Position numbers and translations under genes: made by a program | Part shown: positions 2,539 to 62,268 of the stretch, piece after piece | How the letters are laid out: every line of letters begins with the position of its first letter | How positions within the stretch are numbered: the first letter of the stretch is position 1 | Source: an uncultured virus (IMG/VR IMGVR_UViG_3300046694_000251) | Lineage: Duplodnaviria > Heunggongvirae > Uroviricota > Caudoviricetes | Virus record (IMG/VR): IMGVR_UViG_3300046694_000251 | Reading direction: 5' to 3' (one strand) | DNA: 64,000 nt | Notes under the pieces: model-generated | The model's database searches: none | Told to the model about the DNA's origin: nothing | What the model saw: the letters and a program-made list of their open reading frames with translations, nothing else

Positions 2539-2868
2539 GTGAAGCGGCTTAATACCTACGCGGCTTCGGCCGCGCTCGTGGGGGCGCTCGTCCTCAGCGG
2601 CTGTGGGTCGGACCTCGACCACGGCACGATCACCGGCAAGCGGTACGTACCGGAAGACACCTACACGTACATGCAGCCGGTCTACACGACGCAGTGCTCG
2701 GGATCCGGCTCGTCGCGGGTCTGCTACTCGACGATCTCGATGTACATCCCCATCTCGCAGACGGATCCGGCGTGCTGGCGGCTCGACCTCCGGGACGGCA
2801 AGAAGACCGGTCACGTGTGCGTGTCCAAGGAGGCCTGGAACAAGGCCAAGAAGGGGGAGCAGTGGTGA
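2539..2868 (+). CDS. putative lipoprotein
   Basis: Basic N-terminus, hydrophobic stretch, lipobox LSG-C. Confidence 0.7.
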   Translation: MKRLNTYAASAALVGALVLSGCGSDLDHGTITGKRYVPEDTYTYMQPVYTTQCSGSGSSRVCYSTISMYIPISQTDPACWRLDLRDGKKTGHVCVSKEAWNKAKKGEQW

Positions 2869-3086
2869 GCAGGAATGTCGACCGGCAGAAGGAGCGGGAC
2901 GCGGCCCGGGAGGAACTTCGCTTCGTCGGCGGGCAGGACATGCCGGTCGGTTACGACGAGGTCGACGACGCGATCGACGCATTCGAGTTGTCCGTGCTGC
3001 GACTGGTGCAGTCCAACTCCAGCATCAGCGGGAACGCCAGCGAGTACGTGCTGACCCGGATCAAGGAACTGGAGAACACCGAATGA
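2865..3086 (+). CDS. hypothetical protein
   Basis: GTGA overlap with upstream gene. Confidence 0.6.
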   Translation: MSRNVDRQKERDAAREELRFVGGQDMPVGYDEVDDAIDAFELSVLRLVQSNSSISGNASEYVLTRIKELENTE

Positions 3087-3445
3087 ACGCGCCTGTCACG
3101 GATGACCCGAGATTCGAGCGGCTGCCGAAGTGGGCCAAGGACCGCTTCGCCGCGAGGGACGAGAGGATCCAACGCCTGGAGCGGGAGCTGGCCACGGCGA
3201 GGTCCTTGCTGAACGACGGTCCGGAGGACGCGAACGTCATCGTCGACCCCTACGGCGAGAACCGGCAGCCGATGTTCGACCGTCCGACGGTCTCCTTTAA
3301 GTACCGGGCGGAGGGCGAGCGTTTCGATCGGTACTTCCTCGTGCGCCTGATGGAGGACAACCGGCTGGAGGTCCACGCGAGCAGCAGCATCGTGATCCAC
3401 CCGTCGTCCGGCAACGCGGTGAAGGTCGAGGTGCTGGAGCGCTGA
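3083..3445 (+). CDS. hypothetical phage protein
   Basis: ATGA overlap, codon usage. Confidence 0.7.
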   Translation: MNAPVTDDPRFERLPKWAKDRFAARDERIQRLERELATARSLLNDGPEDANVIVDPYGENRQPMFDRPTVSFKYRAEGERFDRYFLVRLMEDNRLEVHASSSIVIHPSSGNAVKVEVLER

Positions 3446-3519
3446 GCAGGCTCAACCCCTTCGAGCAGAAGGTCCTCAATCGCTACCGGGAGCAGTCCCG
3501 GCCCAGGAAGGAGAAGAAG

Positions 3520-3696
3520 GTGAGCAGCACCCTGAGGGTCAACTACCTCGGCTTCATCGAGCGGTTCGGCATGGGCCCGCGCGAGCAGCGAATCCGCATC
3601 CGTCCCGAGACGCTGGCTCGCTGTGAGCAGTCGGTGGGGACGGCGGCCTACGTCCGCTGGTACCTCGGCCAGCTCGCTGAGCGGCTTAATACCTAG
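3520..3696 (+). CDS. small hypothetical protein (58 aa, ends ...ERLNT)
   Basis: AGGAG RBS, GTG start; not in ORF track. Confidence 0.5.
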   Translation: MSSTLRVNYLGFIERFGMGPREQRIRIRPETLARCEQSVGTAAYVRWYLGQLAERLNT

Positions 3697-3770
3697 ACGG
3701 GTATTCGGGCGCCCGGCAGACGGCAGATCCACCGGGCGCCTGTCCCACCGACGAGAGGTGCAGACTCTCA

Positions 3771-4457
3771 ATGGGACTCACCAAGCCTATCCAGAGCTGG
3801 CGCGAAAGACGCGCGAGCAAGACTGAGACAGACCCTGTCTCGCCCCCGTCTCAGCCGTTCAACGGCCTGCACGCGACCGGTCTGGTCATCGGGTTCACCC
3901 TGATCCTGGTGGCTCTGGCGTTCGTGGCGCTGGTCGGTATGCGGGTGAGCTGGGTACCCCTTCGAGACACCGCAGACGGCATCGGCCTGCACGAGGTCAG
4001 GGAGTACTACCCCCTGGTCATCGACGGGCTGGACGGTCTGGGTGTGGTCGCCTCGCTGGCGCTGGTCGGCTCCCCGGGATACCGGTGGGCGATCGGCACG
4101 GTGGTCGGTCTCACCGCTGTCTCACTCGTTCTCAACGTCGCCCACGGCTCTGCGTACGCGCATGTGACGGGGCAGTCCGCGAAGACGACGTGGGGGCACG
4201 TGATCCTGGCCTCGGCCGCTCCGACCATCTGCATCGCGCTGGGGACGCACCTGGCCGCACTCACCTTCCACCGGCTCGCCGGGGTGCTGAGACAGCGGCG
4301 AGACAGCAGTGAGGTGACCCTGGTCACCGCCAAGCAGTTGGCCGAGCTGCTTGAGGTGAAGCCGAGCACGATCAGCACGTGGGTCGACCGGGGCAAGCTC
4401 ACCCCTGTCTCGAAGGACCCCGACGGCCGCAACCTGTTCGACCCTTCGTCTCTGTGA
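3771..4457 (+). CDS. DUF2637/SpdA-like membrane protein with C-terminal excisionase/MerR-like HTH
   Basis: Four hydrophobic segments, YPLVIDG and SLVLNVAH motifs; C-terminal VTAKQLAELLEVKPSTISTWVDRG HTH. Confidence 0.65.
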   Translation: MGLTKPIQSWRERRASKTETDPVSPPSQPFNGLHATGLVIGFTLILVALAFVALVGMRVSWVPLRDTADGIGLHEVREYYPLVIDGLDGLGVVASLALVGSPGYRWAIGTVVGLTAVSLVLNVAHGSAYAHVTGQSAKTTWGHVILASAAPTICIALGTHLAALTFHRLAGVLRQRRDSSEVTLVTAKQLAELLEVKPSTISTWVDRGKLTPVSKDPDGRNLFDPSSL

Positions 4458-4508
4458 CAGCTCGCGGGGGCTCGGTACGCCGGGCCCCCGCCCATCCCAG
4501 GAGGACCT

Positions 4509-4870: not shown

Positions 4871-5335
4871 ATGACGCTTAATACCCAGGCCCACGAGGCC
4901 GTCGAGATCACCCTGGACGAGGCGAAGACGCTGCTGGCCCGTGCGGTCGAGGAGCGTGGCGCCGACTACACGTACAAGATGCTCACGATCGAGTTGTCTC
5001 CGGGCCGCCGCGAGTCGCTGTGCGCGTACTTCGACCCGGACACGAAGGTGCCATCGTGCATCGTCGGCCAGGTGCTGGCCTACAAGGGCGTCTCGTTCGA
5101 CGCGATGGCGGTCGAGGACGTCAACGTCTACGCCTCGGCGGGCGCGCTGATCGACACCAACTTCATCAAGGCCAACAACGAGACGCGGGCGCTTCTGGAG
5201 GCCGTGCAGTCCGAGCAGGATTCGGGAATGCCGTGGGGCCAGGCCGTCGAGGAGGCCCTGGCGACGTACGAAGGCAACGCGGAGGACTACGAGGCGGCGG
5301 GCCGCGACGACCCGTCCGAGGCGTACTGGTTCTGA
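4871..5335 (+). CDS. hypothetical phage protein
   Basis: Codon usage, coupled to next gene. Confidence 0.7.
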   Translation: MTLNTQAHEAVEITLDEAKTLLARAVEERGADYTYKMLTIELSPGRRESLCAYFDPDTKVPSCIVGQVLAYKGVSFDAMAVEDVNVYASAGALIDTNFIKANNETRALLEAVQSEQDSGMPWGQAVEEALATYEGNAEDYEAAGRDDPSEAYWF

Positions 5336-5988
5336 TGGGGACGCCGAACACTCTGCTGCGCGGGGTCGTGGGCTCGACAGCCTTCGGCCTCGCCCGGCCC
5401 GGGTCCGACATCGACAGCCTGGGCATCTTCGTCCGTCCGACGCCGGAGTTCTTCCGTATCGGCGCCCGGAACAGTGACTCGCTGGTCAGGAAGGACCCGG
5501 ACGTCACCCTGCACGAGGTCGGTAAGTACGTCGCCCTCGCGCTGAAGTGCAACCCGACGATCATGGACCTGATGTACCTGGAGGAATACACGCACCAGTC
5601 CTGGGAGGGGGAGTGGCTGGTCGGCATCCGCGAGGACTTCCTCTCCGAGCCCTACGTGCGCTCCGCTTACGGCGGCTACGCCATGGGACAGATCAAGCGG
5701 ATCAAGCAGGAGCTGGCCAACGACGGCCGCCAGAGCCGCGTCGCGAAGCACGCCAGACACTGCTTCCGGCTCCTGCGGCAGGGCCAGCAACTGCTGGAGT
5801 ACGGCACGCTCACCGTCCGCGTGCCGGACCCGGAGTTCTACTGGGCGTTCGACGAGATGTCGGCCGACCAGATCGAGGCGGAGTTCTGGAAGGCGTTCGA
5901 CGTCTTCAACGACCGTGTCGGCATCCTTCCGGCGCAGCCGCGTACGGACCGGCTCCAGGACTTCATCAACTACGTAAGGAAGATCTGA
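5335..5988 (+). CDS. predicted nucleotidyltransferase (Pol-beta superfamily, YcgL/RlaP-like)
   Basis: GS-x-AFGL...SDID motif, KCNPT and KHARHCFRLL motifs. Confidence 0.8.
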   Translation: MGTPNTLLRGVVGSTAFGLARPGSDIDSLGIFVRPTPEFFRIGARNSDSLVRKDPDVTLHEVGKYVALALKCNPTIMDLMYLEEYTHQSWEGEWLVGIREDFLSEPYVRSAYGGYAMGQIKRIKQELANDGRQSRVAKHARHCFRLLRQGQQLLEYGTLTVRVPDPEFYWAFDEMSADQIEAEFWKAFDVFNDRVGILPAQPRTDRLQDFINYVRKI

Positions 5989-6108
5989 GTGAAGTGGCTT
6001 CGAGACGTTCCGGAGGCCGTGTGGATCGCGGCGCTACTGCTGGACGCGGCTGCGGCCGTCTACGTCGGGCACGCGCTGTTGCTGGCATCCGGACACTGAC
6101 CTGACCTG

Positions 6109-6140
6109 CGAAGGCCCCTGCTGCGGCGGGGGTCTTTTGC
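6109..6140 (+). terminator. intrinsic terminator
   Basis: GC hairpin followed by T run. Confidence 0.6.
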
Positions 6141-6202
6141 ATGTCCGCGCAACCCCTCGAAAGTGTGACCCACGCCATATGGGTTCCGTTGAACATCTTC
6201 AC

Positions 6203-6241
6203 GATTACGGCCTTGAGATTACGGCTTCTTCGTTATAGGTT
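6203..6241 (+). promoter_or_regulatory. sigma70-type promoter with tandem reverse operator sites
   Basis: TTGAGA-17bp-TAGGTT; GATTACGG repeated at 6203 and 6217. Confidence 0.7.
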
Positions 6242-6289
6242 TCTCGATGTCGGGGTAACCCGAAGAACCGCAGAGCCGAGGAGCACCGA

Positions 6290-6685
6290 ATGAGCACCGC
6301 CACCACCGACGAGCAGCGCCGCCTCTACATCCGGGAGTTCCTGAACAACCAGGGCCACCACGGCCTCGGCGCGGTGCTCGCGGAGATCAACGACGGTGAC
6401 GACAGCGACGACTACCTCGACTTTGGCGCCACCCTCCAGATCCAGGACTGCTCCCGCAGCGTGACCCTCGACTTCGGCGTCTACGGCCAGACGGTCACCG
6501 AGGAAGACCGCGAACAGCTCCGCAAGGACCTGGAGAACGCCCGCGCGAAGGCCGACCGCCTCAAGGGCGCCGTCTACCTCTTCATCGAGAAGCTGGACGA
6601 GGCCCTGAGCGACGTAGAGACGGACCTCGACAAGCGGGACCGCAAGGCGAAGAAGAAGGCCAAGAAGGCCGCGAAGAAGGGCTGA
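6290..6685 (+). CDS. hypothetical protein with Lys-rich tail
   Basis: AGGAG RBS. Confidence 0.75.
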   Translation: MSTATTDEQRRLYIREFLNNQGHHGLGAVLAEINDGDDSDDYLDFGATLQIQDCSRSVTLDFGVYGQTVTEEDREQLRKDLENARAKADRLKGAVYLFIEKLDEALSDVETDLDKRDRKAKKKAKKAAKKG

Positions 6686-6687
6686 AC

Positions 6688-6915
6688 ATGACCGCGAAGC
6701 AGGACGACCGCCCCCTCATGGGACTCGGCCACCTGGTGATCCCCAACAGCAGCGCCAGCCAGGACTGGCTGAAGCGCCAGGGTGAGAAGCGCCAGGAGGC
6801 CGCCGAGATCGTCGCCCTTGAGGCCAAGAAGTGGTTCGCCATCGACCACCTGCCCGAGGAGTTCTACGAGACCTTCGCCAAGCGCGTGGTCGCCGCCCTC
6901 GACCAGCGTCTCTGA
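6688..6915 (+). CDS. hypothetical protein
   Basis: Operon position, codon usage. Confidence 0.65.
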   Translation: MTAKQDDRPLMGLGHLVIPNSSASQDWLKRQGEKRQEAAEIVALEAKKWFAIDHLPEEFYETFAKRVVAALDQRL

Positions 6916-6937
6916 CCCACCACACACCGGAGGACCC

Positions 6938-7333
6938 ATGACGAACCTCATGAGCAAGATTCTGACCAACGTCTCCACCCTCTCCGTGTGGGACGCGCTG
7001 GCCAACGGGCAGGGCATCGACCCCTGGATCGACCGCGTGCCGGACGAGTTCTACACCTGGGTCCACCAGCAGGTGCACCGCCTGGAGACCGACTTCAGCC
7101 GCGAGTATCACGAGATCCTGGCGGACTACGACTGGATCGTTGCGCGCCTGCGGCGCCCCGAGACGGACGGGAAGAAGCGGCGCAAGGAGTTCGCGCTTCA
7201 GGCCCAGACCACGCCGTATCCGGGCCTTCTGTTCCGCCTCTACGACGGCCACGACATCTCCGCCGACGTCTGGAAGCGCGTCCGGCCGCAGTTCGAGAAG
7301 CCGTACTGGACCCCTTCGGAGGACGCCGCCTGA
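6938..7333 (+). CDS. protein resembling only the C-terminal domain of RnlA-family RNA ligases
   Basis: LTNVS..SVW, RVPDEFY.WV, RKEFAL, LF..YDG..VWKRVRP motifs; next to PNKP; no KxDG motif. Confidence 0.55.
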   Translation: MTNLMSKILTNVSTLSVWDALANGQGIDPWIDRVPDEFYTWVHQQVHRLETDFSREYHEILADYDWIVARLRRPETDGKKRRKEFALQAQTTPYPGLLFRLYDGHDISADVWKRVRPQFEKPYWTPSEDAA

Positions 7334-8508
7334 TGGTGCCCTTCGACTTCGGCGGGTGGTTCGAGCGGGCCGAGCTGGTAGGCGGGGAGGAGATCCTTGC
7401 CCACCCCCGTAAGGACTGCATCGGCCGCCACTGCTGCATACACAACCCCTCCGAGCACCACATGCGCGACTGGCCCCAGCACTTCCGCATGGACCGTGCC
7501 CTGATGGAACGGATCTGCCCCCACGGTGTCGGTCACCCCGACCCGGACGATCTCACTTTCAAGCGGCTGATGGCCGGGACCGAGGAGGTCCTGGACGCCG
7601 TACACGGCTGTGACGGCTGCTGCGACCCGAGGAGACACATGACCACCCTGACCATGACCAAGGGCCTGCCGGGCTCAGGCAAGACGACGTGGGCCCGGGA
7701 GCAGGTGCTCAAGGCCATCCCCGGCTCGGTCGTCGTCGTGTGCAAGGACGACCTGCGGGCGATGCTGCACGCCGACCGCTGGCACGGCAAGAACGAGCGC
7801 CAGGTCGTCAAGGCCCGCGACGCACTGGTGGAGATGTTCCTGCTCCAGGGTGTCTCCGTGATCGTGGCGGACACCAACCTCAACCCGGCCCACGAGGAGC
7901 GGCTGAAGGGCGTGGCGGAGCGGCGGGGAGTGAAGTTCTTCGTCAAGGACTTCACCGACGTACGTCTTAATACCTGCATCTCCCGCGACCTGAAGCGGGA
8001 GAAGAGCGTCGGCGAGAAGGTCATCAGGGACATGCACGCGAAGTACCTGACCCCGGCCCCGGCAGACCCGCCGGAGTACCTCGAAGGCCGCCCGCATGCG
8101 GTCCTGGTGGACCTGGACGGCACGCTGGCCAAGATGGTCGGCCGCAGCCCCTTCGACTGGGACCGCGTGGACGAGGACGATGCCCACCAGGACGTCGTCG
8201 ACCTGGTGAACACCCTGCGGGACGCGGGGGCCGAGGTCATTTTCGTCTCCGGCCGCGACGCACGGGCCTACAAGCGGACCCGGAACTGGCTGGACCGCAA
8301 CGTGGGCCCCTGGACGCGGCTCACGCCGCTGCTGATGCGCTCCGAGTACGACATGCGCAAGGACTCGATCGTGAAGGAGGAGATCTACCGGCAGGAGATC
8401 CTGGGCCGCTACAACGTCTGGCTGGTCCTCGACGACCGCAACCAGGTGGTTGACATGTGGCGCAATCTCGGCTTGCGCGTCCTCCAAGTTGCACCTGGCA
8501 ACTTCTGA
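7333..8508 (+). CDS. polynucleotide kinase/3'-phosphatase (PseT-like), with in-frame upstream Cys/His-rich domain; internal start at 7639
   Basis: P-loop GLPGSGKTT, HAD DLDGT, SGR and DDR motifs. Confidence 0.9.
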   Translation: MVPFDFGGWFERAELVGGEEILAHPRKDCIGRHCCIHNPSEHHMRDWPQHFRMDRALMERICPHGVGHPDPDDLTFKRLMAGTEEVLDAVHGCDGCCDPRRHMTTLTMTKGLPGSGKTTWAREQVLKAIPGSVVVVCKDDLRAMLHADRWHGKNERQVVKARDALVEMFLLQGVSVIVADTNLNPAHEERLKGVAERRGVKFFVKDFTDVRLNTCISRDLKREKSVGEKVIRDMHAKYLTPAPADPPEYLEGRPHAVLVDLDGTLAKMVGRSPFDWDRVDEDDAHQDVVDLVNTLRDAGAEVIFVSGRDARAYKRTRNWLDRNVGPWTRLTPLLMRSEYDMRKDSIVKEEIYRQEILGRYNVWLVLDDRNQVVDMWRNLGLRVLQVAPGNF

Positions 8509-10769: not shown

Positions 10770-10843
10770 CTGGACGTAGCGCAGCCCGGTAGCGCTCCTG
10801 ATTTGGGTTCAGGGGGTCGCAGGTTCGAATCCTGCCGTCCAGA
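10770..10843 (+). tRNA. tRNA-Pro(TGG)
   Basis: Cloverleaf, anticodon loop TTTGGGT, GGTTCGAATCC T-arm. Confidence 0.92.
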
Positions 10844-10848
10844 CTCAA

Positions 10849-10921
10849 GGCCCTTTGGCAGAGACAGTTAATGCGCCCGCCTGAAAAGCGGGAGATCTTG
10901 GTGCGATTCCAAGGGGGGCCA
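10849..10921 (+). tRNA. tRNA-Phe(GAA), non-canonical T-loop
   Basis: Stem CCCGC/GCGGG with loop CTGAAAA; T-loop TGCGATT. Confidence 0.8.
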
Positions 10922-10930
10922 CTTTGTCCA

Positions 10931-11085
10931 GACGCCGAGCCCTGTTCCTGGACAAAAACTGCAATCAACCCTGAACAGGGGCGGGAGACCGAAACGCTTT
11001 ACTGGGGCGAATCCGCAGAATCTTTGTGGTAGGGAGCAGCACTTATCCCGAGCCCGTCACCTAATTTCGCAGGCGTGCGGAGTGC
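10931..11085 (+). ncRNA. c-di-AMP (ydaO/yuaA)-like riboswitch
   Basis: Ordered blocks CGCCGAG, GCGGGAGACC, TGGGGCGAATC, GTAGGG, CCCGAGCCCGTCACCTAA, GCAGGCGT directly upstream of a cell-wall hydrolase. Confidence 0.8.
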
Positions 11086-11089
11086 AACC

Positions 11090-11572
11090 ATGATCAAGAA
11101 GATCGTAGGAATTCTGACTGCCGTAATTCTGACGCTTTCCCCCATCGCGGTATCCGGCACGGCCTGGGCGAGCACAGGAGGCGGTACCACGTCCACCGCC
11201 CCAGCGCCCGCCTCAGTGTCGGGCAACAAGATCGTCAGGCAGGGCGCCAAGTACATCGGATACAGGTACGTGTGGGGAGGTGCCTCCCCGAGCCGTGGGT
11301 TCGACTGCTCCGGCTTCACCAACTACACGTTCAAGCGGCTGGGGAAGTCCATACCCCGGGTGGCCAGCGACCAGTACCGGCACAGCAAGCACGTCAGAAC
11401 GCCGCGAGCGGGCGACCTGGTCTTCGTCCACGACTCCAGCGGCTACGTCTACCACGTCGGCATCTACGTCAATTCCCACACCTGGCTGGAAAGCGAGCGA
11501 CCTGGTAAGGGTGTCAACTACTACCACCCCTGGACGAAGCGCGTTTACTACGGGCGCTACTACGTGAAGTAG
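11090..11572 (+). CDS. secreted NlpC/P60 (C40) cell-wall peptidase
   Basis: Signal peptide; YVWGG, FDCSG, PGDLVF-like and HVGIY motifs. Confidence 0.92.
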   Translation: MIKKIVGILTAVILTLSPIAVSGTAWASTGGGTTSTAPAPASVSGNKIVRQGAKYIGYRYVWGGASPSRGFDCSGFTNYTFKRLGKSIPRVASDQYRHSKHVRTPRAGDLVFVHDSSGYVYHVGIYVNSHTWLESERPGKGVNYYHPWTKRVYYGRYYVK

Positions 11573-11622
11573 GATTCACCAGTAAGAAAGGCCGGAGGGA
11601 AGATAGGGTCCTTCCGGCCCCC

Positions 11623-11704
11623 GGCCGAGTGGTGTAATGGCAGCCACGCCATCCTCAAAAGATGGTGCCCTGTGGGCGTGCGGGTTCGACCCCCGCCTCG
11701 GCTA
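11623..11704 (+). tRNA. tRNA-Leu(CAA)
   Basis: Anticodon loop CTCAAAA, long variable arm, GGTTCGAC T-arm. Confidence 0.9.
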
Positions 11705-11709
11705 CGCAA

Positions 11710-11782
11710 TCCTCCATAGCTCAATTGGCAGAGCAGCGGACTGTTAATCCGCGAGTTCCTGGTTCGAGTCCAGGTGGGGGAG
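11710..11782 (+). tRNA. tRNA-Asn(GTT)
   Basis: Cloverleaf, loop CTGTTAA, GGTTCGAGTCC. Confidence 0.93.
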
Positions 11783-11820
11783 CCCCCGTAAGCCCCGGTG
11801 ACCTAATTGGTTACCGGGGC

Positions 11821-12803: not shown

Positions 12804-14045
12804 TTGAGCGCCCTTACCGAGTCCACTGACGTCGAGTGGGTCCGAGAGATCCTGATGGACCCCACCGTCGGTCACGAGGCCGCCGCTGCGGACCTCGTCT
12901 TCAACGGCATCGAGACGTCGGAGACGGCCGTCCGGCGCTGGCGCAAGGCCAACGGCTACAAGCGCTCCATCCTCATCGAGCCGGGCAAGGAGCCGAAGCG
13001 TCTTAATACCCTGCCCGAGGAGGGCACGGCCGAGGCAGTGGCCGAGAACGAAGAGGTACTGAGGGACCGCATCGAGTCCCTGACCTCCGACAACCGCCGA
13101 CTCTTCCAGCAGTTCACCAAGGCCAAGGCGCGCGGCGACGAGTACATCGAGGCCGTCTACCGCGCCGCCCGGGACGCCGCCCAGTTCGTCGGAGCGACCC
13201 CTGTGGCGCCTCCGAAGGCCGACAAGCGCACCCAGGCCAGCGAGGTCGCCCTGTGGCACCTCACGGACTGGCAGGGCGGCAAGAAGACCCTCTCCTACGA
13301 CCGCACCATCATGCGGACCCGCATCATGCGGTACGTCGAGAAGGCCAGGGAGATCACCGAGATCCAGCGCGCCGACCACCCGGTACGCAAGGCCGTCCTG
13401 CTCTTCACCGGGGACATGGTGGAAGGCGTGAGCATCTTCCCCGGGCAGGTCTGGGAGTTGGATGGCACGCTCTACGAGCAGATGTTCGACGTCTCCGACC
13501 TGATGATCTGGACGATCAAGCAGGCCCTCCAGATCTACGACGAGGTCGAGGTCGTCGCCGAGTACGGCAACCACGGCCGCCTCGGCAAGAAGTCCGACGG
13601 CATCAAGGCGTCCGACAACGTCGACCGCATGGTCTACAACATCGTCCGCGAGCGCCTGGCCCACGAGGGACGCCTGAAGAAGTTCCAGACCACCGGCGAC
13701 TGGTACCAGCACTTCACCATCGGCAACTACCGGGCCATGGCCATCCACGGCGACGAGATCAAGTCCTTCGGAGGCAATATTCCGGCATACGGAATTTTGC
13801 GGAAGGCCAACCAGTGGGCCTCCGGCGTCCTGCCGTCCTTCCGGGACCTGTACATCGGCCACTACCACCAGTCGATGCAACTCCAGTTGGCCAACGGCGG
13901 ATCGGTCTTCATGACCGGCTCCCCGGAGAGCGACAACATCTACGCCCACGAATTCGTCGCGGCGACCGGCGACCCGAGCCAGCGCCTGCACTTCGTCCAC
14001 CCCGAGAAGGGACGCGTCACCAGTGAGCACCGCATCTGGCTCTGA
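12804..14045 (+). CDS. calcineurin-like metallophosphoesterase/nuclease with N-terminal HTH-like and coiled-coil region
   Basis: DWQ, GDMVEG, GNHGR, HGD and GHYH motifs. Confidence 0.85.
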   Translation: MSALTESTDVEWVREILMDPTVGHEAAAADLVFNGIETSETAVRRWRKANGYKRSILIEPGKEPKRLNTLPEEGTAEAVAENEEVLRDRIESLTSDNRRLFQQFTKAKARGDEYIEAVYRAARDAAQFVGATPVAPPKADKRTQASEVALWHLTDWQGGKKTLSYDRTIMRTRIMRYVEKAREITEIQRADHPVRKAVLLFTGDMVEGVSIFPGQVWELDGTLYEQMFDVSDLMIWTIKQALQIYDEVEVVAEYGNHGRLGKKSDGIKASDNVDRMVYNIVRERLAHEGRLKKFQTTGDWYQHFTIGNYRAMAIHGDEIKSFGGNIPAYGILRKANQWASGVLPSFRDLYIGHYHQSMQLQLANGGSVFMTGSPESDNIYAHEFVAATGDPSQRLHFVHPEKGRVTSEHRIWL

Positions 14046-14349
14046 GCCCACCACCACGACCCTGGAGTACCCCTTGAGCATCGTCACCGAGGTCGCATCC
14101 GAGCACGAGGCCGCCTACCGCTACGTCGTCGGCGACGACGAGGAGACGTACGTCTCCATCAAGGACATCGTCGGCTCCCTGCTGGAGTTCTCCGAGAAGT
14201 TGGAGGGCATGGGCGGCATCTTCGAGCAGATCGGTGACGCCTTCACCCAGGTCGCCGTCCAGATCGCGGAGCCGTTCATGCAGGTTCCGACCGAGACCGC
14301 GACCGTCCTCAGCCTGCTTAATACCTCCCCCTCCGGGGGCGCTGAGTGA
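14023..14349 (+). CDS. hypothetical protein
   Basis: Operon position, codon usage. Confidence 0.6.
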   Translation: MSTASGSEPTTTTLEYPLSIVTEVASEHEAAYRYVVGDDEETYVSIKDIVGSLLEFSEKLEGMGGIFEQIGDAFTQVAVQIAEPFMQVPTETATVLSLLNTSPSGGAE

Positions 14350-14543
14350 AGACAGCCCGCGACAACGCGGTCTGGAAGGTCCGGGTCCTGATGAACGGCC
14401 GGTACGGCTGGAAGCCCAAGACGTACTTCTACTCCCGCGAGTTCCACATCACGGACTGGCGGGAGAAGGCCGACCGCGCACCCAACCTGTTCCAGATCGA
14501 CTTCATCGGCAAGTACACCCTGGAGGAAGAAAGTGTCGCGTAA
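14346..14543 (+). CDS. hypothetical protein
   Basis: GTGA overlap. Confidence 0.6.
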   Translation: MKTARDNAVWKVRVLMNGRYGWKPKTYFYSREFHITDWREKADRAPNLFQIDFIGKYTLEEESVA

Positions 14544-36491: not shown

Positions 36492-36504
36492 TCGGAGTCG
36501 CGGA

Positions 36505-50400: not shown

Positions 50401-51715
50401 CTACGGTGCCACGGACATCTCCGCTGGCGGAGTGCGGCTCTATGGCCCCGACGGCTCGCTGCAAACAGAACTCACCTCGTCCAACGCGCACGCCACCTTC
50501 GCGGGAGGAAAGGCGGCCATCGACTCCAACGGCGTCGGCACATTCAACTCCCTGTGGACCCCGCAGCGCCCTGCTGGCGCGCCCAGTGACGACCCCACCG
50601 GGCAACTCTGGTACCAGGGCAAGGAACTCTCCGACCTGCTGTGGAACATGCCCTGGGGCATGGTCACCTACGAGCGCGGCTGGACCAGTAGGCCGACCGC
50701 CTCGACCTACTACACCACGGAAACCGGCCTCATCGAACTGGGCTTCACGGCCGTCGAGGGCCGGATGTACCGCATCGTCGCCCGGTCCCAGTTCGACTTC
50801 AACGGCGGTACGGGCAACCAGGTGCTGGAGAACCGAGTAAACGTCGCCGCCACGGCAGCGACGGTCAATGGGTGCACGATCTGGAGCCCTACCGGGGCCA
50901 GCCCGAGAGTGACGGACCCGATCGTCTGCCGCCACTTCGGCATGTACTACGACGGCGGGGGTACGGACGGCACCACCACCACGGAGGGCATCATCGTCTG
51001 CTCCTCCGACGCGGGCGGCCTGTACAGCAGCACCACGGCCCTGGCCCCTGGAGACCACCGGATCCTGTGGACCGCAACCATCCACTCGGGCAACGCCACC
51101 GGCTGGGGCCTGCGCAACTACAACCCCGCGCAGTCCTCGGACTTCTACGTCGAGGACATCGGCCCGGCCGTTCCCGAGGGCGGTGTCTACAACACAGGAG
51201 GCGCGGCGGTCACGGCGACCAAGACGTACACCAAGACCTACAACGCTGTCTGGTCCCGGCGCTTCGGCAACGCGGGCAACACCGACGGAACCATGTACCA
51301 GGGCTACTACTCCGGCACCTGGGGCACGCAGAAGTCGATGGTCGGATTCGGCTCCCAGCCGTACACCGACATGGGTTCCTCGGCGAAGGTCTCCAAGGTC
51401 GAGATATACCTCTACGCCAACCACTGGTATTACAACGGTGGTGGTACGGCACATATCGGCGCTCACACGCAGTTGAATATCCCTTCGGGTGTCACCTGGG
51501 CCAATAACCTGACGGTCACCTCGTGGCCGGTAGGTGCCGGTAAGTGGGTAACCCTTCCGTCGTCCTGGAATTCAACTTGGAACGCTACGACCCCGTATCG
51601 TGGAATCACGCTGGGTGCGGATCTTGGTTCCAGCACCGACAAGACCTACTACGGGATCTTCGACGGTGTCGGTGACACCCACCCTCCGCAACTCAAAATC
51701 ACATACACGAAGTAG
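47471..51715 (+). CDS. baseplate spike (gp5/gpV OB-fold) fused to FN3, repeat and receptor-binding regions
   Basis: YRASV..NQDP..RV..IPQV..WA..P.IG..WVQFSGGD..PV at N-terminus. Confidence 0.85.
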   Translation: MSADPVLGMYRASVANNQDPLNEARVTLLIPQVLGNAESAWAAPASPTNTIPPIGQTLWVQFSGGDITKPVYAPLGIKAVQDQVDDLPSGGTLDALPPKEPTALTLTTVQYVTNEGATRARVTASWTPPTENQDGTALTDLSHYLLQTSYDNSNWSGGFVTTEDLVLLDGLNTGVALYVRVAAFDTSNNTSLWASANITTASASTPPPVPSAPGVVGVLGGLRVTWDGKDNTGTAMPAIFSHVQVQRDTTSAFSNPVVIGTLPGPDFLYDSIQNYASAYYYRLIAYSKVGIASAPSGSNSGTPKQALAQDILDGSLSAAKIAVGAIDNTKLAANAVLAANIANGAVEAGKLAALAVGTTNIANNAVTGVQMADATIGSAKIINGAIGNAQIADAAINNAKISDLDAGKINVGTLNAARIATGSLDASKITAGTLTATQILAGSITGDRLAANTITANQIAANTITANQMAAGTITAQSGIIASIDASKITVGRLSASQIDATNLVVTGGNVNGTVASATSATSATSASSSTTVTGSIGAGVPVPANQLNNTQIPTSTTISGNSIVTGTLDANLVNVTNLDAANIKAGTLTVDKLSAGLQATVGQKFYDFGNSANKWNNASPGTMTTVAVTDAASGGFIMRCVGYVQGAYRPDLLIPFDPTVTYRVTCRVRQTVANGTPGTNQVFYAGVTGIASDGVTLVNIAGSNTRGSQAYAAARAIPLTAGGGWVTYTGYIKGTAAAGDAGPNNSPTSPMRLHQNVKYISPCLYLNYNGGTGTAEVDVFTIEVVETGQVNSANINLGNVNAQHLSLGSVTGNLVTNGGFEDTARPGWTLTQSDSTLATTAAKIEIGQGGYPARSGQGKLALGVNNTGTATATSDPFPVVAGDTYMLRYWYYGIGHLHVTFETSPDKVTWTDMLAGANDTTYNSASYVEDIFEGIVPTGALYGRVTFQQLNPGSYGLSTTSFSYICVDDVLVMREGYGATDISAGGVRLYGPDGSLQTELTSSNAHATFAGGKAAIDSNGVGTFNSLWTPQRPAGAPSDDPTGQLWYQGKELSDLLWNMPWGMVTYERGWTSRPTASTYYTTETGLIELGFTAVEGRMYRIVARSQFDFNGGTGNQVLENRVNVAATAATVNGCTIWSPTGASPRVTDPIVCRHFGMYYDGGGTDGTTTTEGIIVCSSDAGGLYSSTTALAPGDHRILWTATIHSGNATGWGLRNYNPAQSSDFYVEDIGPAVPEGGVYNTGGAAVTATKTYTKTYNAVWSRRFGNAGNTDGTMYQGYYSGTWGTQKSMVGFGSQPYTDMGSSAKVSKVEIYLYANHWYYNGGGTAHIGAHTQLNIPSGVTWANNLTVTSWPVGAGKWVTLPSSWNSTWNATTPYRGITLGADLGSSTDKTYYGIFDGVGDTHPPQLKITYTK

Positions 51716-57838: not shown

Positions 57839-58450
57839 ATGCTTACCAACTACGCCGACGTGGCGGCCCTCGCCGTCGGCCTGGTCCTGCCCGCCATCGT
57901 GGCGGTGTTCACCAAGCCGTCGACCAACCCCACCGTCAAGGGCTTCGCGCACGCCGTCCTGGCCCTCGCCACCGGCTCCCTGGCCACCTACAAGGCCGAC
58001 CCGTCGAACTTCGTGTGGGCGCCCGCTGTGATCGCCGCGTTCCTGGCCTGGCTGTCCGGCACGGCGTTCTACCACTCCCTGCTGAAGAAGTACTCCTGGT
58101 TCGGTGCGCTCCAGAACCTGTTCGTGTCCGAGGTCGAGAGCCGTCTTAATACCCACGGCGCCGACGTCGAGCGGTACTTCGAGGTGGCGCAGGCGGCCGA
58201 GCTGGCCGAGGACGCGCAGGGCATCACCAACGACTTCCCCTTGAGCACCGACGTGGTTCAGTCCGGCGTGGAGGAGGCCGTCAAGGCGGCCGAGGAGATC
58301 CCCGTCGTCGGCACGGTCGTCCAGCGCTTCGAGACGGTCGCGGTCCCGGCGATCATTACGGCCGTGGAGGCTGTCGCGGCGCCGGTCGTCGAGAACTCCA
58401 CCCCTGCCGTCGCTGTGCAGCCTGGCGGCCTGGGTCCGAGGGCGATCTGA
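57839..58450 (+). CDS. holin-like membrane protein
   Basis: Three N-terminal TM segments after tail genes. Confidence 0.6.
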   Translation: MLTNYADVAALAVGLVLPAIVAVFTKPSTNPTVKGFAHAVLALATGSLATYKADPSNFVWAPAVIAAFLAWLSGTAFYHSLLKKYSWFGALQNLFVSEVESRLNTHGADVERYFEVAQAAELAEDAQGITNDFPLSTDVVQSGVEEAVKAAEEIPVVGTVVQRFETVAVPAIITAVEAVAAPVVENSTPAVAVQPGGLGPRAI

Positions 58451-58861: not shown

Positions 58862-60091
58862 TTGAGCAAGCAGCCCATCACCCTGGCCTTCGCTGGTTCC
58901 GCCGACATCGACCCCGAGAATGTCAAGGACCTGCTCAACGACTGGCTCGGCTTCGGCGACGAGGACAAGGACGGCTTCTTCGAGCCGAGCGACCGCGAGA
59001 TCAACCTCATCTTCCCGGTCACCCGGGAGCACCTGTCCGACGGCCTGGAAGCGGTCCTCGGCTGGGCCGAGAAGGCCGACCTCCCCTACGTCGCCGTCGC
59101 CGACAACAAGCGCAGCCGCGCCACCGAGCAGATCCTCAAGGACGCCGAGGAGACCGTCCACGTCGCCAACGTCACGGCCGGTGTGGTCGACCTGCTGAAG
59201 AAGGCCGACAGCGCGGGCGACGAGGTCCACGTCATCCTGCTGTGGGGCGACGAGGGCAGCGAGCAGGCCGAACTCCTCCTGGACGCCGCCGACCAGGCGG
59301 GCTTCAAGGCCAAGGACCTCACCGCCGGACTCGACGACATCTCCTTCGGTGAGCAGCCGCAGGCCGAGGAGCCGGAGGAGGAGCCCCAGCCGGAACCCGA
59401 GCCGGAGCCCGAGCCGGAGGCCCCCAAGCGTGGTCGCCGTCGTGGCCGTCGCTCTGAGCCCGAGGAGGCCGAGCCGGAGGAGGAGCCGCTGACCGAGGAG
59501 GACGCGCCGGAGGAGCCCAAGCAGGAGGAGCCCAAGCGCGGCCGTCGCGGTCGCAAGGTCGAGCCGGAGCCCGAGGAGCACCCGGTCGAGCAGGACATCC
59601 AGGAGCAGCAGGAGGACCTGGAGCAGGAGGTCAACCGCGCCGCGCAGAAGATCCAGCGTGAGGCCACCCCGGTCCCCGACAAGGAGATCGACCTCATCCT
59701 CATCGGCAACGCTTTGGAGGGTGCCTACAACGCCTTCCGCCTGGAGGACGAGCGCAACGCGGTCATCAACCAGGCCGAGGTACGCCTCCGGCCGCTGACC
59801 GAACTGCTGGCCAAGGCGCTTAATATCGTGGCCGACTCGGTCCACGACAAGGAGGCCGAGGAGCAGGAGCGCCCGGCCGAGAAGAAGGCCGAGGAGCCGG
59901 AGGAGGAGCAGACCTCCGGACGCCGTCGCCGTGGACGTCCGCGCGACGAGAGCAAGACGTTTGCCTTCCTGGTCGACGACGAGGGCAACTACAGCCGTCG
60001 CGGCCGTGGCCGTATCCCGGCCGGACAGACCGTCGTACACCTGACCCGGGCGGAGATCGAGGAGAAGGGCCTCGAACTCGACTCGGAGTGA
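58862..60091 (+). CDS. acidic low-complexity protein with repeated RGR/AT-hook-like motifs
   Basis: GGAG RBS with TTG start; KRGRRRGRR, RRRRGRPR, RRGRGRIP. Confidence 0.75.
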   Translation: MSKQPITLAFAGSADIDPENVKDLLNDWLGFGDEDKDGFFEPSDREINLIFPVTREHLSDGLEAVLGWAEKADLPYVAVADNKRSRATEQILKDAEETVHVANVTAGVVDLLKKADSAGDEVHVILLWGDEGSEQAELLLDAADQAGFKAKDLTAGLDDISFGEQPQAEEPEEEPQPEPEPEPEPEAPKRGRRRGRRSEPEEAEPEEEPLTEEDAPEEPKQEEPKRGRRGRKVEPEPEEHPVEQDIQEQQEDLEQEVNRAAQKIQREATPVPDKEIDLILIGNALEGAYNAFRLEDERNAVINQAEVRLRPLTELLAKALNIVADSVHDKEAEEQERPAEKKAEEPEEEQTSGRRRRGRPRDESKTFAFLVDDEGNYSRRGRGRIPAGQTVVHLTRAEIEEKGLELDSE

Positions 60092-60155: not shown

Positions 60156-60249
60156 CCACCACACCCCGAGGCCCACCACAAACCCCGAGATGGGAAGAAC
60201 CTAACATGTCGAGCCGACTTAATATCAACGGCGGATTCGGAGCCGCCGA

Positions 60250-61263
60250 GTGAGCATCCTGATCATGTCGGAAGTGTTCACGCAGTCCGACACCCGCCTG
60301 GCCACGCGCCTCGTTCTGCTCGCGCTGGCGGACGCGGCCAACGACTCCCACCGCATGTGCTGGGAGTCCGTCGACACCATCGCGGCCAAGGCCCGGGTCT
60401 CCCGACGGCAGTGCTTCACCGCGCTGTCGACCCTGGAGGACCGGCGCATCGTCGAGCACGTCTCGGACGAGGAGAAGCCCGCCGAGGCGGAGCGGTACAA
60501 GTCCGTGGTCCGCAGGATTCTGCCGGTGTCCGAGTGGCTGCCGGAGCCTGCTAAGGGTGCAGAATCCGCACCCCCCTCTAAGGGTGCAGAATCCGCACAG
60601 GTGTCGAATTTTTCACCCAACCCCAATAACCAACTGGAAGTTAGAGATATAGAAGAAACTACGTTTCTTCCACCGCGCCGGTCGGCACGGTCCGATCCCG
60701 GCGGAGCCGAGGAGATCCCTACGAGGCCGGGTGCTCGTGGCTGGGATGCCGTGGCCGCTCCTCGTCGTGGCGGCCGGAAGAAGACCCGGAAGCAGGTGGC
60801 GGAGGAGGCTGCCCTGGCCGAGAAGGAACTCGACCCGGCGTTCGTCGTGGCCCAGGCTCTCGGAGAGGACACCCCATCCTTCAGCCTGTACGGCGATCTC
60901 CCGGCCTCGGACGGTGACCTGGCCCCTCCGGTCCGGCGACCTCGTGAGAAGCGCTCCAGGAGGCCGTCGGAGGAACTGGCGGAGTTCTTCGGCAAGCGGG
61001 CTCAGGGGGTAGGCCATCCGGTACCCGGTCCGGTCAACCTTGGAGCCCTCACCGGACAGTTCGGCCGGTGGATGCGCGAGGGTCTGGAACGAGAGGCAAT
61101 CCGGCAGATGATCATCACCTACTGGTCGTCCTCCTGGAACCGCTCGGAGAACCATCCGGCGTGGAAGGACTTCCTCGCCGCCCGTGGTCTGTTGACGGAG
61201 CGGCTGGGCAAGGCCGAGAACACGATGGAGAAACACCGGCACGACGAGTCCTTCTGGGACTGA
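60250..61263 (+). CDS. replication initiator (wHTH, lambda O-like organisation)
   Basis: RLVLLALADAAN..CW.S..TIA.KA.VS; upstream of DnaC-like and DnaB genes. Confidence 0.8.
   Translation: MSILIMSEVFTQSDTRLATRLVLLALADAANDSHRMCWESVDTIAAKARVSRRQCFTALSTLEDRRIVEHVSDEEKPAEAERYKSVVRRILPVSEWLPEPAKGAESAPPSKGAESAQVSNFSPNPNNQLEVRDIEETTFLPPRRSARSDPGGAEEIPTRPGARGWDAVAAPRRGGRKKTRKQVAEEAALAEKELDPAFVVAQALGEDTPSFSLYGDLPASDGDLAPPVRRPREKRSRRPSEELAEFFGKRAQGVGHPVPGPVNLGALTGQFGRWMREGLEREAIRQMIITYWSSSWNRSENHPAWKDFLAARGLLTERLGKAENTMEKHRHDESFWD
60551..60598 (+). repeat. 21-bp direct repeat (putative iterons)
   Basis: CTAAGGGTGCAGAATCCGCAC twice, followed by an AT-rich stretch. Confidence 0.7.
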
Positions 61264-61309
61264 TGCCACCAGGGGCGGGCTGCTACGGCGGTCCGCCCCT
61301 TACGTTTAC

Positions 61310-61338
61310 TTGAAGGCGTATTCTGGAAGGCGTAATCT
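61310..61338 (+). promoter_or_regulatory. promoter with tandem GAAGGCGTA operator variants
   Basis: TTGAAG-17bp-TAATCT; repeats at 61312 and 61326. Confidence 0.65.
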
Positions 61339-61385
61339 GTGGTAGCCTCCTGAGCGTTGAACCACCACCACACGAGGAGGCCACG

Positions 61386-62045
61386 ATGGCGACAGACCCC
61401 CGGGTCCACGCCCTGCGGCTCAAGGAGTACGGCATCCCCGCGCACTACAGGGCCCTTCGACTTAATACCGTGGCGGACGCCCCTGAGCGCGCCGCCTGCA
61501 AGACCTGGCTCGACGAACTGCGCGACCACTACGTCACCGACAAGCGGCCCCTCACGGAGTACCCCGAGGACTGGTCCCGGATCGGCAAGGGTCTGCTGCT
61601 CGTGGGCCCGCCCGGCACCGGAAAGACCACCCTGGCTACCGCCACGCTGCTGGAGGTCTACTACGCCCACCGGCTCCCGGTGCACTGGCTGGCCTACGCC
61701 GACTTCGTGAAGGACTCCATCGAGAAGATGGGCCTCCAGGACCGCAGCGAGCCCGAGGCCGTCGCCCGGTGGTGGGAGATCCAGGACAAGATCGTGGCGG
61801 CCGAGAAGGCCCCCGTCCTCGTGCTGGACGACGTCGGCAAGGAGCACCGCACCAAGACCGGCTACGCCGAGGGCCTGCTGGACACCCTGCTGCGCCAGCG
61901 GCACCGCGAGGCCCGGCCCACGATCGTCACCTCGAACCTCCCGCCCCGGGAGTGGGGTGCCGTCTACAACCCCACGATGGGCTCCTTCATCCAGCAGGCA
62001 TTCACACACGTCAAGTTGATCGGAGAGGACCGCCGTGCAGCCTGA
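61386..62045 (+). CDS. DnaC/IstB-like AAA+ helicase loader
   Basis: GPPGTGKT, LVLDDVGKE, TIVTSN. Confidence 0.88.
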   Translation: MATDPRVHALRLKEYGIPAHYRALRLNTVADAPERAACKTWLDELRDHYVTDKRPLTEYPEDWSRIGKGLLLVGPPGTGKTTLATATLLEVYYAHRLPVHWLAYADFVKDSIEKMGLQDRSEPEAVARWWEIQDKIVAAEKAPVLVLDDVGKEHRTKTGYAEGLLDTLLRQRHREARPTIVTSNLPPREWGAVYNPTMGSFIQQAFTHVKLIGEDRRAA

Positions 62046-62268
62046 ACACACGCAGCCGCCGCTCCCGTTCGAGGACGAGGTTTTGGTGCTTCTCTACAAA
62101 CGCGAAGTGCCGGACCACCGCCTCCCCGAGCACTGGGCCTCCCTGGAGTGGACCCTCCGCAGCCGCGCCAAGCACCTGGGCTTCGACCTCGTACGCACCC
62201 GCCGGTTCCAGAAGTGGGAGGGCGACACGCTTAATATCTCGCTCCGCGCGGAAGCGGAGCGCACCTGA
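62035..62268 (+). CDS. hypothetical protein
   Basis: Overlaps both neighbours. Confidence 0.6.
   Translation: MQPEHTQPPLPFEDEVLVLLYKREVPDHRLPEHWASLEWTLRSRAKHLGFDLVRTRRFQKWEGDTLNISLRAEAERT

Follow-up and report, generated by a model that had tools for sequence, protein, structure and literature searches.

The DNA analysed here is a stretch of 64,000 nucleotides (nt), called the window, from an uncultured virus of the Caudoviricetes (IMG/VR record IMGVR_UViG_3300046694_000251). PHROG and Pfam scans and BLAST searches show a temperate, contractile-tailed phage with structural genes and a replication module; a DnaG-like primase, a DnaB-like helicase and a replication initiator were recognised in the Pfam/PHROG scans, and the nearest cultured relatives are Streptomyces phages (tail sheath 47–48% identical in amino acid sequence by BLAST). 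Scattered through its genes is the nine-base word CTTAATACC, in 16 exact copies (15 on the forward strand and one, at 24861, on the reverse strand), together with three copies of the variant CTTAATATC (59819, 60218 and 62230), giving 19 word copies in total. A preliminary description of the window had listed these copies, and all 16 and all three were recovered at the positions it gave; its GC content of "about two-thirds" counts to 0.646 overall (0.62–0.68 per 4 kb). Dinucleotide shuffles of the window give an expectation of 0.02 for CTTAATACC, with a largest value of two.

All 19 copies lie on the sense strand in the frame CTT-AAT-AYC, just as the preliminary description had read them, inside an open frame that mostly has a high GC content at third codon positions (GC3), and the one reverse-strand copy is inside a 50-codon reverse-strand open reading frame (ORF) upstream of the serine integrase gene. 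Its estimate that about half the copies are near gene ends is close to the count, which is 11 of 19 within about ten codons of a start or stop. Among the 79 genes called in the window the tripeptide Leu-Asn-Thr is written as CTTAATACC in 16 of 16 cases (composition predicts 4.1 occurrences), and Leu-Asn-Ile as CTTAATATC in two of four. In 1000 synonymous-codon shuffles the mean number of words is 0.128 and the maximum two, versus 18 in the coding sequence of the window. The shuffles do not reproduce the word and the peptide is always written with the same codons; therefore selection acts on the nucleotides and not on the peptide, as had been proposed. Its further statement, that the bases around the word show no conservation, holds only in part: of 78 site groups, 62 have a purine at −1 and 40 have a T directly after the word, and downstream there is a stem-loop whose register is fixed. 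The word with its stem-loop is called a cassette below. The sites in the window are as follows (aa, amino acids; SD, Shine-Dalgarno sequence).

2548–2573 (+): word (2548–2556) as codons 4–6 of a 109-aa gene (2539–2868); stem-loop GCGGC-UUCG-GCCGC at 2560–2573
3685–3783 (+): word in a structured leader; the upstream ORF ends in the word plus TAG, and the ATG of the downstream gene is at 3771
4877–4900 (+): word as codons 3–5 (ATG ACG CTT AAT ACC) of a 154-aa gene (4871–5335); stem at 4888–4900
7966–8007 (+): word in the middle of the polynucleotide kinase-phosphatase gene (7333–8508); 8-bp stem within 7976–8007
13002–13026 (+): word at codon 67 of a 413-aa exonuclease/phosphoesterase gene (12804–14045); stem at 13012–13026
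14317–14348 (+): junction cassette, its word ten codons ahead of the stop of gene 14023–14349; stem CCCCC-UCC-GGGGG at 14327–14339, the 3′ arm being the SD of the next gene, whose GTG start (14346) overlaps the stop (GTGA)
15322–15343 (+): word as codons 7–9 of a MazG-like pyrophosphohydrolase gene (15304–15807); weak stem at 15332–15343
24840–24869 (−): the sole reversed cassette, its word (24861–24869) being codons 7–9 of the 50-codon ORF 24735–24887, first gene of the leftward serine-integrase operon; stem at 24840–24860
33357–33384 (+): word as codons 3–5 of a 286-aa gene (33351–34211) between the portal and major capsid genes; stem CGGGCA-UCUCGG-UGCCCG at 33367–33384
36480–36514 (+): word followed by TGA as the last three codons of a head gene (36072–36491); the next gene runs from 36505; weak downstream structure only
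39724–39767 (+): word in the middle of the tail sheath gene (39160–40704), specific to the A type defined below; weak or long-range structure
41319–41345 (+): word as codons 5–7 of a baseplate-hub-like gene (41307–42170); stem GGGGU...GCCCC at 41330–41345
45149–45172 (+): word near the C-terminal end of the tape-measure gene (42308–45313); stem at 45160–45172
47981–48019 (+): word in the gene for a 1414-aa tail protein (47471–51715); strong stem at 47990–48019
58145–58189 (+): word in the middle of a 203-aa gene (57839–58450)
59819–59863 (+): CTTAATATC in a 409-aa gene (58862–60091); the orthologous stem has a G-C to C-G compensatory change
60206–60253 (+): 15-codon mini-ORF with its ATG at 60206, CTTAATATC at 60218–60226 and a stem at 60229–60248; its TGA overlaps the GTG (60250) of the replication-initiator gene, and this copy is thus outside any long gene
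61461–61499 (+): word at codon 26 of a DnaC-like loader gene (61386–62045); stem at 61470–61499
62230–62270 (+): junction cassette with CTTAATATC; stem GCUCCGC-GCGGAA-GCGGAGC at 62240–62261, its 3′ arm holding the GGAG that is the SD of the next gene; stop and start overlap as TGATG (62266–62270)

A form with G at position 4, CTTGATACC, lies on the opposite strand, in the window at 47696–47704 (−) and in several genomes at one or two positions that are conserved; probably it only resembles the word by chance, within a gene that is itself conserved.

Types and reading frame of the word in related phages

Relatives were drawn from IMG/VR, and the close ones were ranked by identity of the major capsid protein (MCP). 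Complete relatives (~105 kb) carry 36–42 copies of the word. Some close relatives (MCP 91–95% identical) have CTTAATACC at the same density, and it is missing from others, among them the one with the most similar MCP (97%); these latter phages carry CTTCATACC at the orthologous positions, and they are called C-type and the former A-type. The single orientation claimed from the window extends to the relatives, where the strand ratios for CTTMATAYC are 35:1, 39:1, 21:1, 28:1 and 11:1 in five whole records and the reversed copy lies in a reversed ORF. Three further complete genomes have 37–42 matches to CTTNATAYC, the few reverse-strand matches listed there including CTTGATAYC chance words. No comparable word was found in G007 (a complete provirus whose MCP is 83% identical) or in G009. 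The sequence GAYACGTGG in L033 (13 forward, none reverse) was considered as a second oriented word and rejected, as it is a tandem repeat spaced about 60 nt apart within one gene.

The 157 sites of six genomes form 78 orthologous groups, of which 17 hold both types, 39 only C and 22 only A, and about 30 positions have A in all A-type genomes and C in all C-type genomes. At 2548 the C-type orthologues read CTTCATAYC and have a compensatory change in the stem, at 47981 they carry a different stem at the same place, and at 36480 they read CTGAACGCC or CTCAACGCC, that is, Leu-Asn-Ala with ordinary codons. The word of the reversed ORF at 24735–24887 is conserved and type-switched in relatives. Sites have also been gained by recoding, CTGCACACC becoming CTTCATACC in a single C-type genome (G003) and CTGAACACC becoming CTTAATACC in the A type only. 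A-type genomes write Leu-His-Thr, and C-type genomes Leu-Asn-Thr, with ordinary codons. A survey of IMG/VR that was anchored on the conserved context of the 41319 site, with position 4 left free, covered 57 loci and 736 kb; the 41 A-type loci have 184 A and no C sites and the 16 C-type loci have 56 C and no A sites (240 sites), and neither a G nor a T type at position 4 was found in the 57 loci. The two types were seen together only once, as a single CTTCATACC among the A-type sites of G005 (reverse-complement coordinate 57754), shared by its near-copy L202. The gene it sits in encodes 95 aa and has this site in its C-type orthologues too, and the copy is likely a trace of recombination between the types. 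The discrete types, the concerted switch at some 30 orthologous sites and the near absence of mixing (none in 57 of 57 loci) therefore imply a phage-encoded specificity factor, which agrees with the trans-acting factor postulated from the window.

Ten genomes contain 296 sites, and all 246 of those in called genes are on the sense strand and in frame 0. For CTTAATACC this frame is forced, as the other frames give TAA or TTA/ATA, and the preliminary description had explained the frame in this way. The explanation holds for CTTAATACC but fails for CTTCATACC, which has no stop in any frame and yet is in frame 1 in every in-gene copy. Codon usage would favor frame 2 for CTTCATACC (expectation 0.031 vs 0.017 for frame 1, with 0.31 for the antisense reading GGT-ATG-AAG), and words two mismatches away occur 13, 7 and 43 times in sense frames 1, 2 and 3 and 54 times in antisense frame 1, compared with 29, 0, 0 and 0 exact copies. 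Sites gained by single lineages within the C-type background number at least six, every one of them in frame 1. The 50 sites outside called genes make up 22 groups, 14 of which have an SD-like sequence and an in-frame start no more than nine codons upstream, versus 6.8% of 3200 random intergenic positions (p = 9e-12). These starts open mini-ORFs of 6–15 codons, for example GTG GTC CGG CTT AAT ACC TAG, and in many the stop overlaps the next start. The one conserved site in apparently non-coding DNA proved to be in frame 0 of a 132-codon ORF (genome G012, L181:12225–12620, +). Strand and frame of the word are thus both selected. The preliminary description had also considered a directional DNA signal for packaging or ejection; the reversed copy is in frame within its reversed ORF, conserved and type-switched, and a strand-absolute DNA signal is therefore ruled out.

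The 132-codon ORF itself resembles a signal-peptide protein and has atypical codon usage and an unusually low GC3. It is followed by a terminator-like hairpin and a TTGAC/TAACGT promoter-like pair, and it borders the cassette-free block described below.

Stem-loop, placement and structured leader

The stem analyses used 107 site groups, 36-nt flanks and 2366 in-frame coding controls. The 36 nt downstream of the word fold with a mean of −12.07 kcal/mol, compared with −7.84 upstream and −8.89 in the controls (p about 1e-12), while the core of the word has pair probabilities of only 0.16–0.32 (~0.58 in controls) and so is unpaired. Counted from the start of the word, the register comprises two spacer bases, a 5′ arm at +11 to +15, a loop and a 3′ arm near +21 to +26, and a first arm of at least 4 bp begins exactly 2 nt past the word in 45 of the 107 groups versus 5% of controls. 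The stem is as strong in the 57 mid-gene groups as elsewhere (−12.59; p = 2e-7). Compensatory double changes affect 20 of 347 predicted pairs (43 groups), 6% of cells are broken, and both loops and stems vary in sequence between sites. Single hairpins compared with shuffles have z-scores from +0.71 to −2.1, none of them individually significant in this GC-rich sequence; the evidence for the stem is positional.

Cassettes are enriched near the ends of genes. Thirty-two of the 107 groups lie within ten codons of the start (null 4.8%; p = 4e-17), most often at codon 3 and never earlier, and 18 lie within 15 codons of the stop (null 7.7%; p = 0.001). At 17 of 31 C-terminal or mini-ORF sites the SD and start of the next gene follow 10–45 nt past the word; at 14317, 60218 and 62230 the SD is inside the 3′ arm or loop of the stem and the stop and start overlap.

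The site at 3685 is the most elaborate. The word plus a stop codon ends the upstream ORF in nine of nine genomes, and in five of them this ORF is one of differing mini-ORFs (6–8 codons) that all end in the word plus stop. In the first hairpin of the leader the AAUACCU of the word (MAUACCU by type) pairs with an anti-word GGGUAUU (~3699–3705), and the base that defines the type covaries with the anti-word (columns 16–35), the pair being CG in five genomes and AU in four, with none broken. A long second stem shows several compensatory changes, and a third structure pairs the SD and the ATG (3771) of the downstream gene; in total nine of 35 leader pairs have compensatory changes. The leader (3500–3900) has no Rfam match at E ≤ 1, and the whole window has only four tRNAs and a cyclic di-AMP (c-di-AMP) riboswitch at the gathering threshold. 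The gene behind the leader is:

3771–4457 (+): 228 aa; DUF2637 membrane domain and C-terminal HTH_17/MerR-like domain (domains read on the orthologue in G003)

This gene was considered as a specificity factor and rejected (0 type-diagnostic columns of 265); it appears to be the regulated target of the leader instead.

Candidate specificity factor and other genes

The factor was sought by comparing gene identity within and between types in five A-type and five C-type genomes, and few genes separate cleanly by type. Two of these are:

14346–14543 (+): 65-aa protein, candidate specificity factor; predicted beta-beta-alpha-beta fold (predicted local distance difference test, pLDDT, 84)
62268–62726 (+): 152-aa gene, the second type-tracking gene

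The 65-aa protein is at least 73% identical within a type and at most 57% identical between types (four A and five C genomes), has type-diagnostic columns, and is concordant with type in 20 of 20 loci, which however are linked to one another and so do not count as independent. The stem of the 14317 cassette contains the SD of its gene. The protein is clade-restricted and absent from the motif-free G007 and G009, and its relatives form 11 clusters only, two of them from Streptomyces isolates. No Pfam family matches it at E ≤ 1, its best ESM Atlas score (0.81) is to unnamed clusters, and searches with its predicted structure gave no clear fold match (best E of 0.25 in Foldseek against PDB, best Z of 5.1 in VIA wide). 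It may be the factor, and on this sequence comparison is the best candidate. The 152-aa protein and a 77-aa neighbour also track type, and the former is a weaker candidate because both have homologues in motif-free phages.

Two other candidates were set aside. The HTH_31+DUF5753 gene (16072–16911), the only repressor-like gene, is 63–64% identical to its A-type and 66–68% to its C-type counterparts and is not among the type-separating genes. A tRNA-His(GTG) is present in three of five C-type genomes (G002, G003 and G013, not G006 or G014) and in none of four A-type genomes covering the region, and is therefore not required. These three tRNAs (L091:1737–1822, −; L092:9573–9658, −; L185:8973–9058, −) are 86 nt long, with a long variable arm and an encoded G-1:C73 pair as read from the sequence.

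The window holds several further features. Two integrase genes face each other, a serine type at 22528–24612 (−) and a tyrosine-like type at 25009–26082 (+); G002 and G006 have, in place of this serine integrase, a form that is only ~31% identical. The HTH_31+DUF5753 protein (279 aa) and an adjoining small DUF397 protein make up a WhiJ/BldB-like pair (15872–16911, −), a type of Streptomyces developmental regulator found here in a phage and ~65% identical between all relatives. A tRNA cluster at 10770–11784 (+) specifies Pro(TGG), Phe(GAA), Leu(CAA) and Asn(GTT); every motif-bearing genome in which the region is covered has this set of four, and there are no tRNAs in the motif-free G007 and G009. 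Within this cluster, upstream of an NlpC/P60-like gene (11216–11572), is the c-di-AMP (ydaO-type) riboswitch (10950–11089, +; 59.2 bits at the Rfam gathering threshold). An RNA-repair set at 5335–8508, comprising an RlaP-type nucleotidyltransferase (5335–5988), an RNA-ligase-like gene (6938–7333; T4 Rnl1-type in G003) and the kinase-phosphatase (7333–8508), is present in every genome with the motif, and G007 and G009 lack it. An HNH endonuclease gene among the head and tail genes (37314–37886, +) is absent from all five relatives compared, and in contigs from DNA and RNA libraries position 37316 is joined to 37888. This is the presence/absence pattern of an insertion, as is typical for mobile HNH genes.

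A block of 17–18 kb with small, poorly conserved genes has no sites at all, and its top repeated word (in G003) is GCTTGACAAG, which contains the −35 hexamer TTGACA. Because of this enrichment the cassette-free block is probably the early region, transcribed by the host polymerase. The similar word GCTTGACA, which also holds TTGACA, occurs six times in the window versus 1.5 expected (8576, 9896, 18188 and 24498 on the forward and 27276 and 58742 on the reverse strand), and the GCTTGACAAG and GCTTGACA words are probably host-type promoters.

Interpretation, alternatives and known systems

The reading we prefer, with a probability of about 0.5, is that the word is part of an mRNA cassette read by the translating ribosome and set by a lineage-specific factor. 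The cassette would be 5′-R CUU MAU AYC (U)N-[5–7 bp stem-loop]-3′, dispersed in cis and active only when translated in frame. For a ribosome with CUU in its P site and the type codon (AAU or CAU) in its A site, the stem would begin at nucleotide +12, which is the position of the ribosomal mRNA entry channel and the spacing of pause and frameshift cassettes. Dependence on strand, codon phase and an upstream start, together with a stem at +12, argues that the translating ribosome is the reader, and from this we infer that the cassette serves elongating ribosomes as a programmed pause or checkpoint. At junctions and in mini-ORFs, where the 3′ arm of the stem is often the next SD, translational coupling would be under the control of a ribosome waiting on the word; just after start codons the cassette could throttle initiation or early elongation, and the 3685 leader may sense whether the word is free or occupied. 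A phage-encoded factor, for which the 65-aa protein is the best candidate, would set the specificity for AAU or CAU in the A site. What the sequences show is the anatomy of the cassette, its frame lock and register, the type switch and the covariation; the pause, the direction of regulation and the identity of the factor are inferred. The RNA-level signal (CUUAAUACC) that the preliminary description listed among its candidates thus lies in the direction of the evidence, although as a translated element.

A larger extension of this reading is offered tentatively. The ~40 cassettes may form a genome-wide, codon-phase-locked checkpoint, "ribosome gates" in all modules but the early block, opened or closed by a small phage protein with a switchable single-base specificity; this would be a post-transcriptional layer of timing and immunity. 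The resulting translational incompatibility of A and C would, if true, explain the near absence of type mixing despite mosaic recombination.

Several observations weigh against reading by the ribosome. Orthologues without the word fold equally well (−10.45 vs −10.94; p = 0.69; 34 loci); as such orthologues hold equally stable stems, a co-origin of stem and word was rejected, and the word was therefore placed beside existing stems and did not arise with them. Sense and antisense strands also fold equally well, and G·U pairs show no difference between them, so the strand of the stem is not assignable. In a majority of the groups, 57 of 107, the site is mid-gene, and there a role in coupling is not obvious. 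The gene calls are our own crude calls based on GC3, made with no trained gene finder. A frame test by "free synonymous opportunity" had no power, with 0–3 opportunities per genome in frames 2 and 3, and part of the C-type frame lock could be inherited from A-type ancestors, in which it was forced. As for the 65-aa protein, the Foldseek and VIA searches of its predicted structure gave no recognisable nucleic-acid-binding fold, and common descent, together with linkage to neighbouring sites, confounds the way it tracks type.

Mu Com on the mom mRNA and T4 RegA are translational regulators that suggest an alternative, possible but doubtful, in which the word is an operator for a sequence-specific RNA-binding protein: a small phage protein would bind the single-stranded word, melt or lock the stem and so set translation up or down. 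The unpaired word followed by a stem in fixed register, the junction stems that contain the next SD and the word:anti-word pairing of the 3685 leader would all be expected of such an operator, as would a small clade-restricted protein that tracks type and has its own SD in a cassette stem; early-region genes lack cassettes, which would fit a phage product whose targets are the later genes. On this account the frame lock is inherited from the A-type word, plus reuse of the same tolerant positions, but new C-type sites never fall in frame 2 or in the more accessible frame 3. It also leaves the SD and start at sites outside long genes unexplained, and a clearly untranslated leader holds none of the 296 sites, even with ~14–16% of the genomes outside called genes; the mid-gene sites have no initiation to control. 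Improbable, in our view, is a signal for RNA processing or stability, where a host or phage endoribonuclease cuts the AU-rich word and the stem becomes a protective 5′-terminal hairpin, turning long transcripts into stable units. It would suit an unpaired AU-rich word directly before a stem and the enrichment near gene boundaries, and the RNA-repair genes (kinase-phosphatase, ligase and RlaP), present in all motif-bearing genomes and absent from the motif-free G007 and G009, might act on the ends. However, a cut two to eight codons past the start (32 of 107 groups) or mid-gene destroys the message, and the frame lock and mini-ORFs are unexplained unless the nuclease is ribosome-dependent. Of 24 sequencing runs that include the stretch or part of it, all as contigs, four (one DNA and three RNA libraries, with relatives at 85–99%) showed neither ends nor joints from one site to another, and as contigs they carry no information on expression or cleavage.

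The preliminary description had put forward polar roadblocks like mycobacteriophage stoperators. On this view a phage protein on the 9-bp duplex would block RNA polymerase in one direction and silence the prophage, and the A and C types would be immunity groups. A temperate phage with two integrases and provirus records, 36–42 sites oriented with transcription (even the reversed site in its reversed operon) and two discrete variants never mixed in the 57-locus survey recall the features given in PMC6550527. We nevertheless consider such DNA sites quite improbable. Duplex binding is blind to reading frame, to an upstream SD and start and to a stem of variable sequence, and a frame lock without stop pressure, the coupled stem-loop, the SD and start at seemingly intergenic copies and the anti-word pairing speak against the idea. 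Nor does the HTH_31+DUF5753 gene track type, being equally diverged from both (63–68%); no copies were found at promoters, none are in the presumed early region with its TTGACA words, and the sites avoid non-coding DNA.

It is very unlikely that the word is a recoding site at which CUU and the downstream stem send a fraction of ribosomes into another frame or make them abort. Among P-site codons, CUU is a classical case of +1 slippage (prfB CUU-UGA-C, Ty1 CUU-AGG-C), the word is frame-locked and begins with it, A-type CUU-A is the slip tetranucleotide of Ty1, and between the A-site codon and the stem there is a spacer of 5 nt. On the other hand, direct reading of R-CTT-MAT-AYC finds no X XXY YYZ heptamer, the −1 frame meets TAA at once in 19 of 19 window sites, and the +1 A-site codon is the rare AUA. 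The +1 frames, open for 9–318 codons, yield no consistent product and, where checked (including 14317), fail to run into the frame of the next gene, and forty truncation sites per genome have no obvious use. Frameshifting itself is unlikely. Least likely of all is a single-stranded DNA signal, a nick or priming site for a phage replication or transfer enzyme that reads the hairpin and adjoining word. The nick core of phiX174 and pC194-type origins, CTTGATA, is one base from CTTMATA, and the word-plus-hairpin architecture, the strong strand bias and the encoded primase, helicase and initiator would fit. Against it are the reversed copy, conserved and type-switching in a reversed operon, the frame lock and mini-ORFs, the pairing of the leader word in an mRNA 5′ region that also hides the SD and ATG, and a Pfam scan of 106 G003 proteins that found no HUH-type endonuclease.

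Literature searches for the 9-mers, for stoperators and for start-associated sequences found no description of the element; those for stoperators and start-associated sequences led only to the known systems, and among the matches listed for four 9-mers (the word, the variant and their complements) were primers and tRNA designs, with none on phages. No described family fits, and the element looks previously undescribed. It nonetheless has likenesses to several. The L5 gp71-type proteins are the immunity repressors of Cluster A stoperators. In the Cluster A mycobacteriophages, each stoperator is a 13-bp site on duplex DNA to which the immunity repressor binds, and some of them are promoter operators (PMC6550527); as here, tens of copies of a short asymmetric word in a temperate actinophage are oriented with transcription, and related lineages use slightly different words matched to their own factor. 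The word described here differs from stoperators in being 9–10 nt long, inside ORFs and frame-locked, with a stem-loop after it and an SD and start where it is outside long genes, and it does not covary with a repressor-like gene.

The start-associated sequences (SAS) and extended SAS (ESAS) of Cluster K mycobacteriophages are 13-mers with an AGGAG Shine-Dalgarno core, 3–7 bp upstream of starts in the non-structural half only; their function and factor are unknown, inverted repeats are sometimes present and the consensus differs between subclusters (PMC3203893). They too are dispersed, one-orientation actinophage words tied to translation starts, with inverted repeats and lineage variants (PMC3203893). 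Compared with that account, the present word has no G and no SD, lies from codon 3 onward or elsewhere in ORFs and in structural genes as well, and its repeats are downstream stems of variable sequence.

Like frameshift and pause cassettes, whose stimulatory structure lies 5–9 nt downstream of the shift site, the present cassette is sense-strand, frame- and nucleotide-specific, and its measured register places the stem ~5 nt past the A-site codon (+12), in agreement with the known geometry; unlike them, it has no slippery heptamer and no conserved alternative-frame product, and it occurs in ~40 copies per genome and two lineage variants. The ermC-type leaders, Mu Com activation of mom and the lambda nut boxA+boxB (also a word plus hairpin) are single-locus devices with locus-specific sequences. 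In leader and coupling switches the occupancy of the word decides whether the stem forms, and a short ORF or single-stranded word beside an SD-hiding stem is indeed found at 14317, 60218, 62230 and the 3685 leader; here, however, one word is reused genome-wide, including mid-gene. The junction cassettes, with a word and a stem hiding the next SD, would be analogous in architecture to the targets of Com/RegA-like regulators. Lambda nut sites are untranslated, with a conserved loop and about one per operon, whereas the cassettes have variable loops, are translated and number 36–42 per genome.

If the preferred reading is true, phage coding sequences can bear strong constraints that are not those of the protein, which would mislead codon-based analyses and be lost on routine codon optimisation. 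The word would then belong to a new regulatory grammar, its meaning set by strand, frame and a neighbouring RNA stem, with ~40 uses and two "alleles", and the ~30 sites switched from A to C would be a natural experiment on a joint change in specificity of a cis-regulon and its factor. The role of other dispersed oriented actinophage words, such as SAS, would become testable, and stoperators, which act on transcription, would have in the cassettes a first dispersed counterpart at the level of translation.

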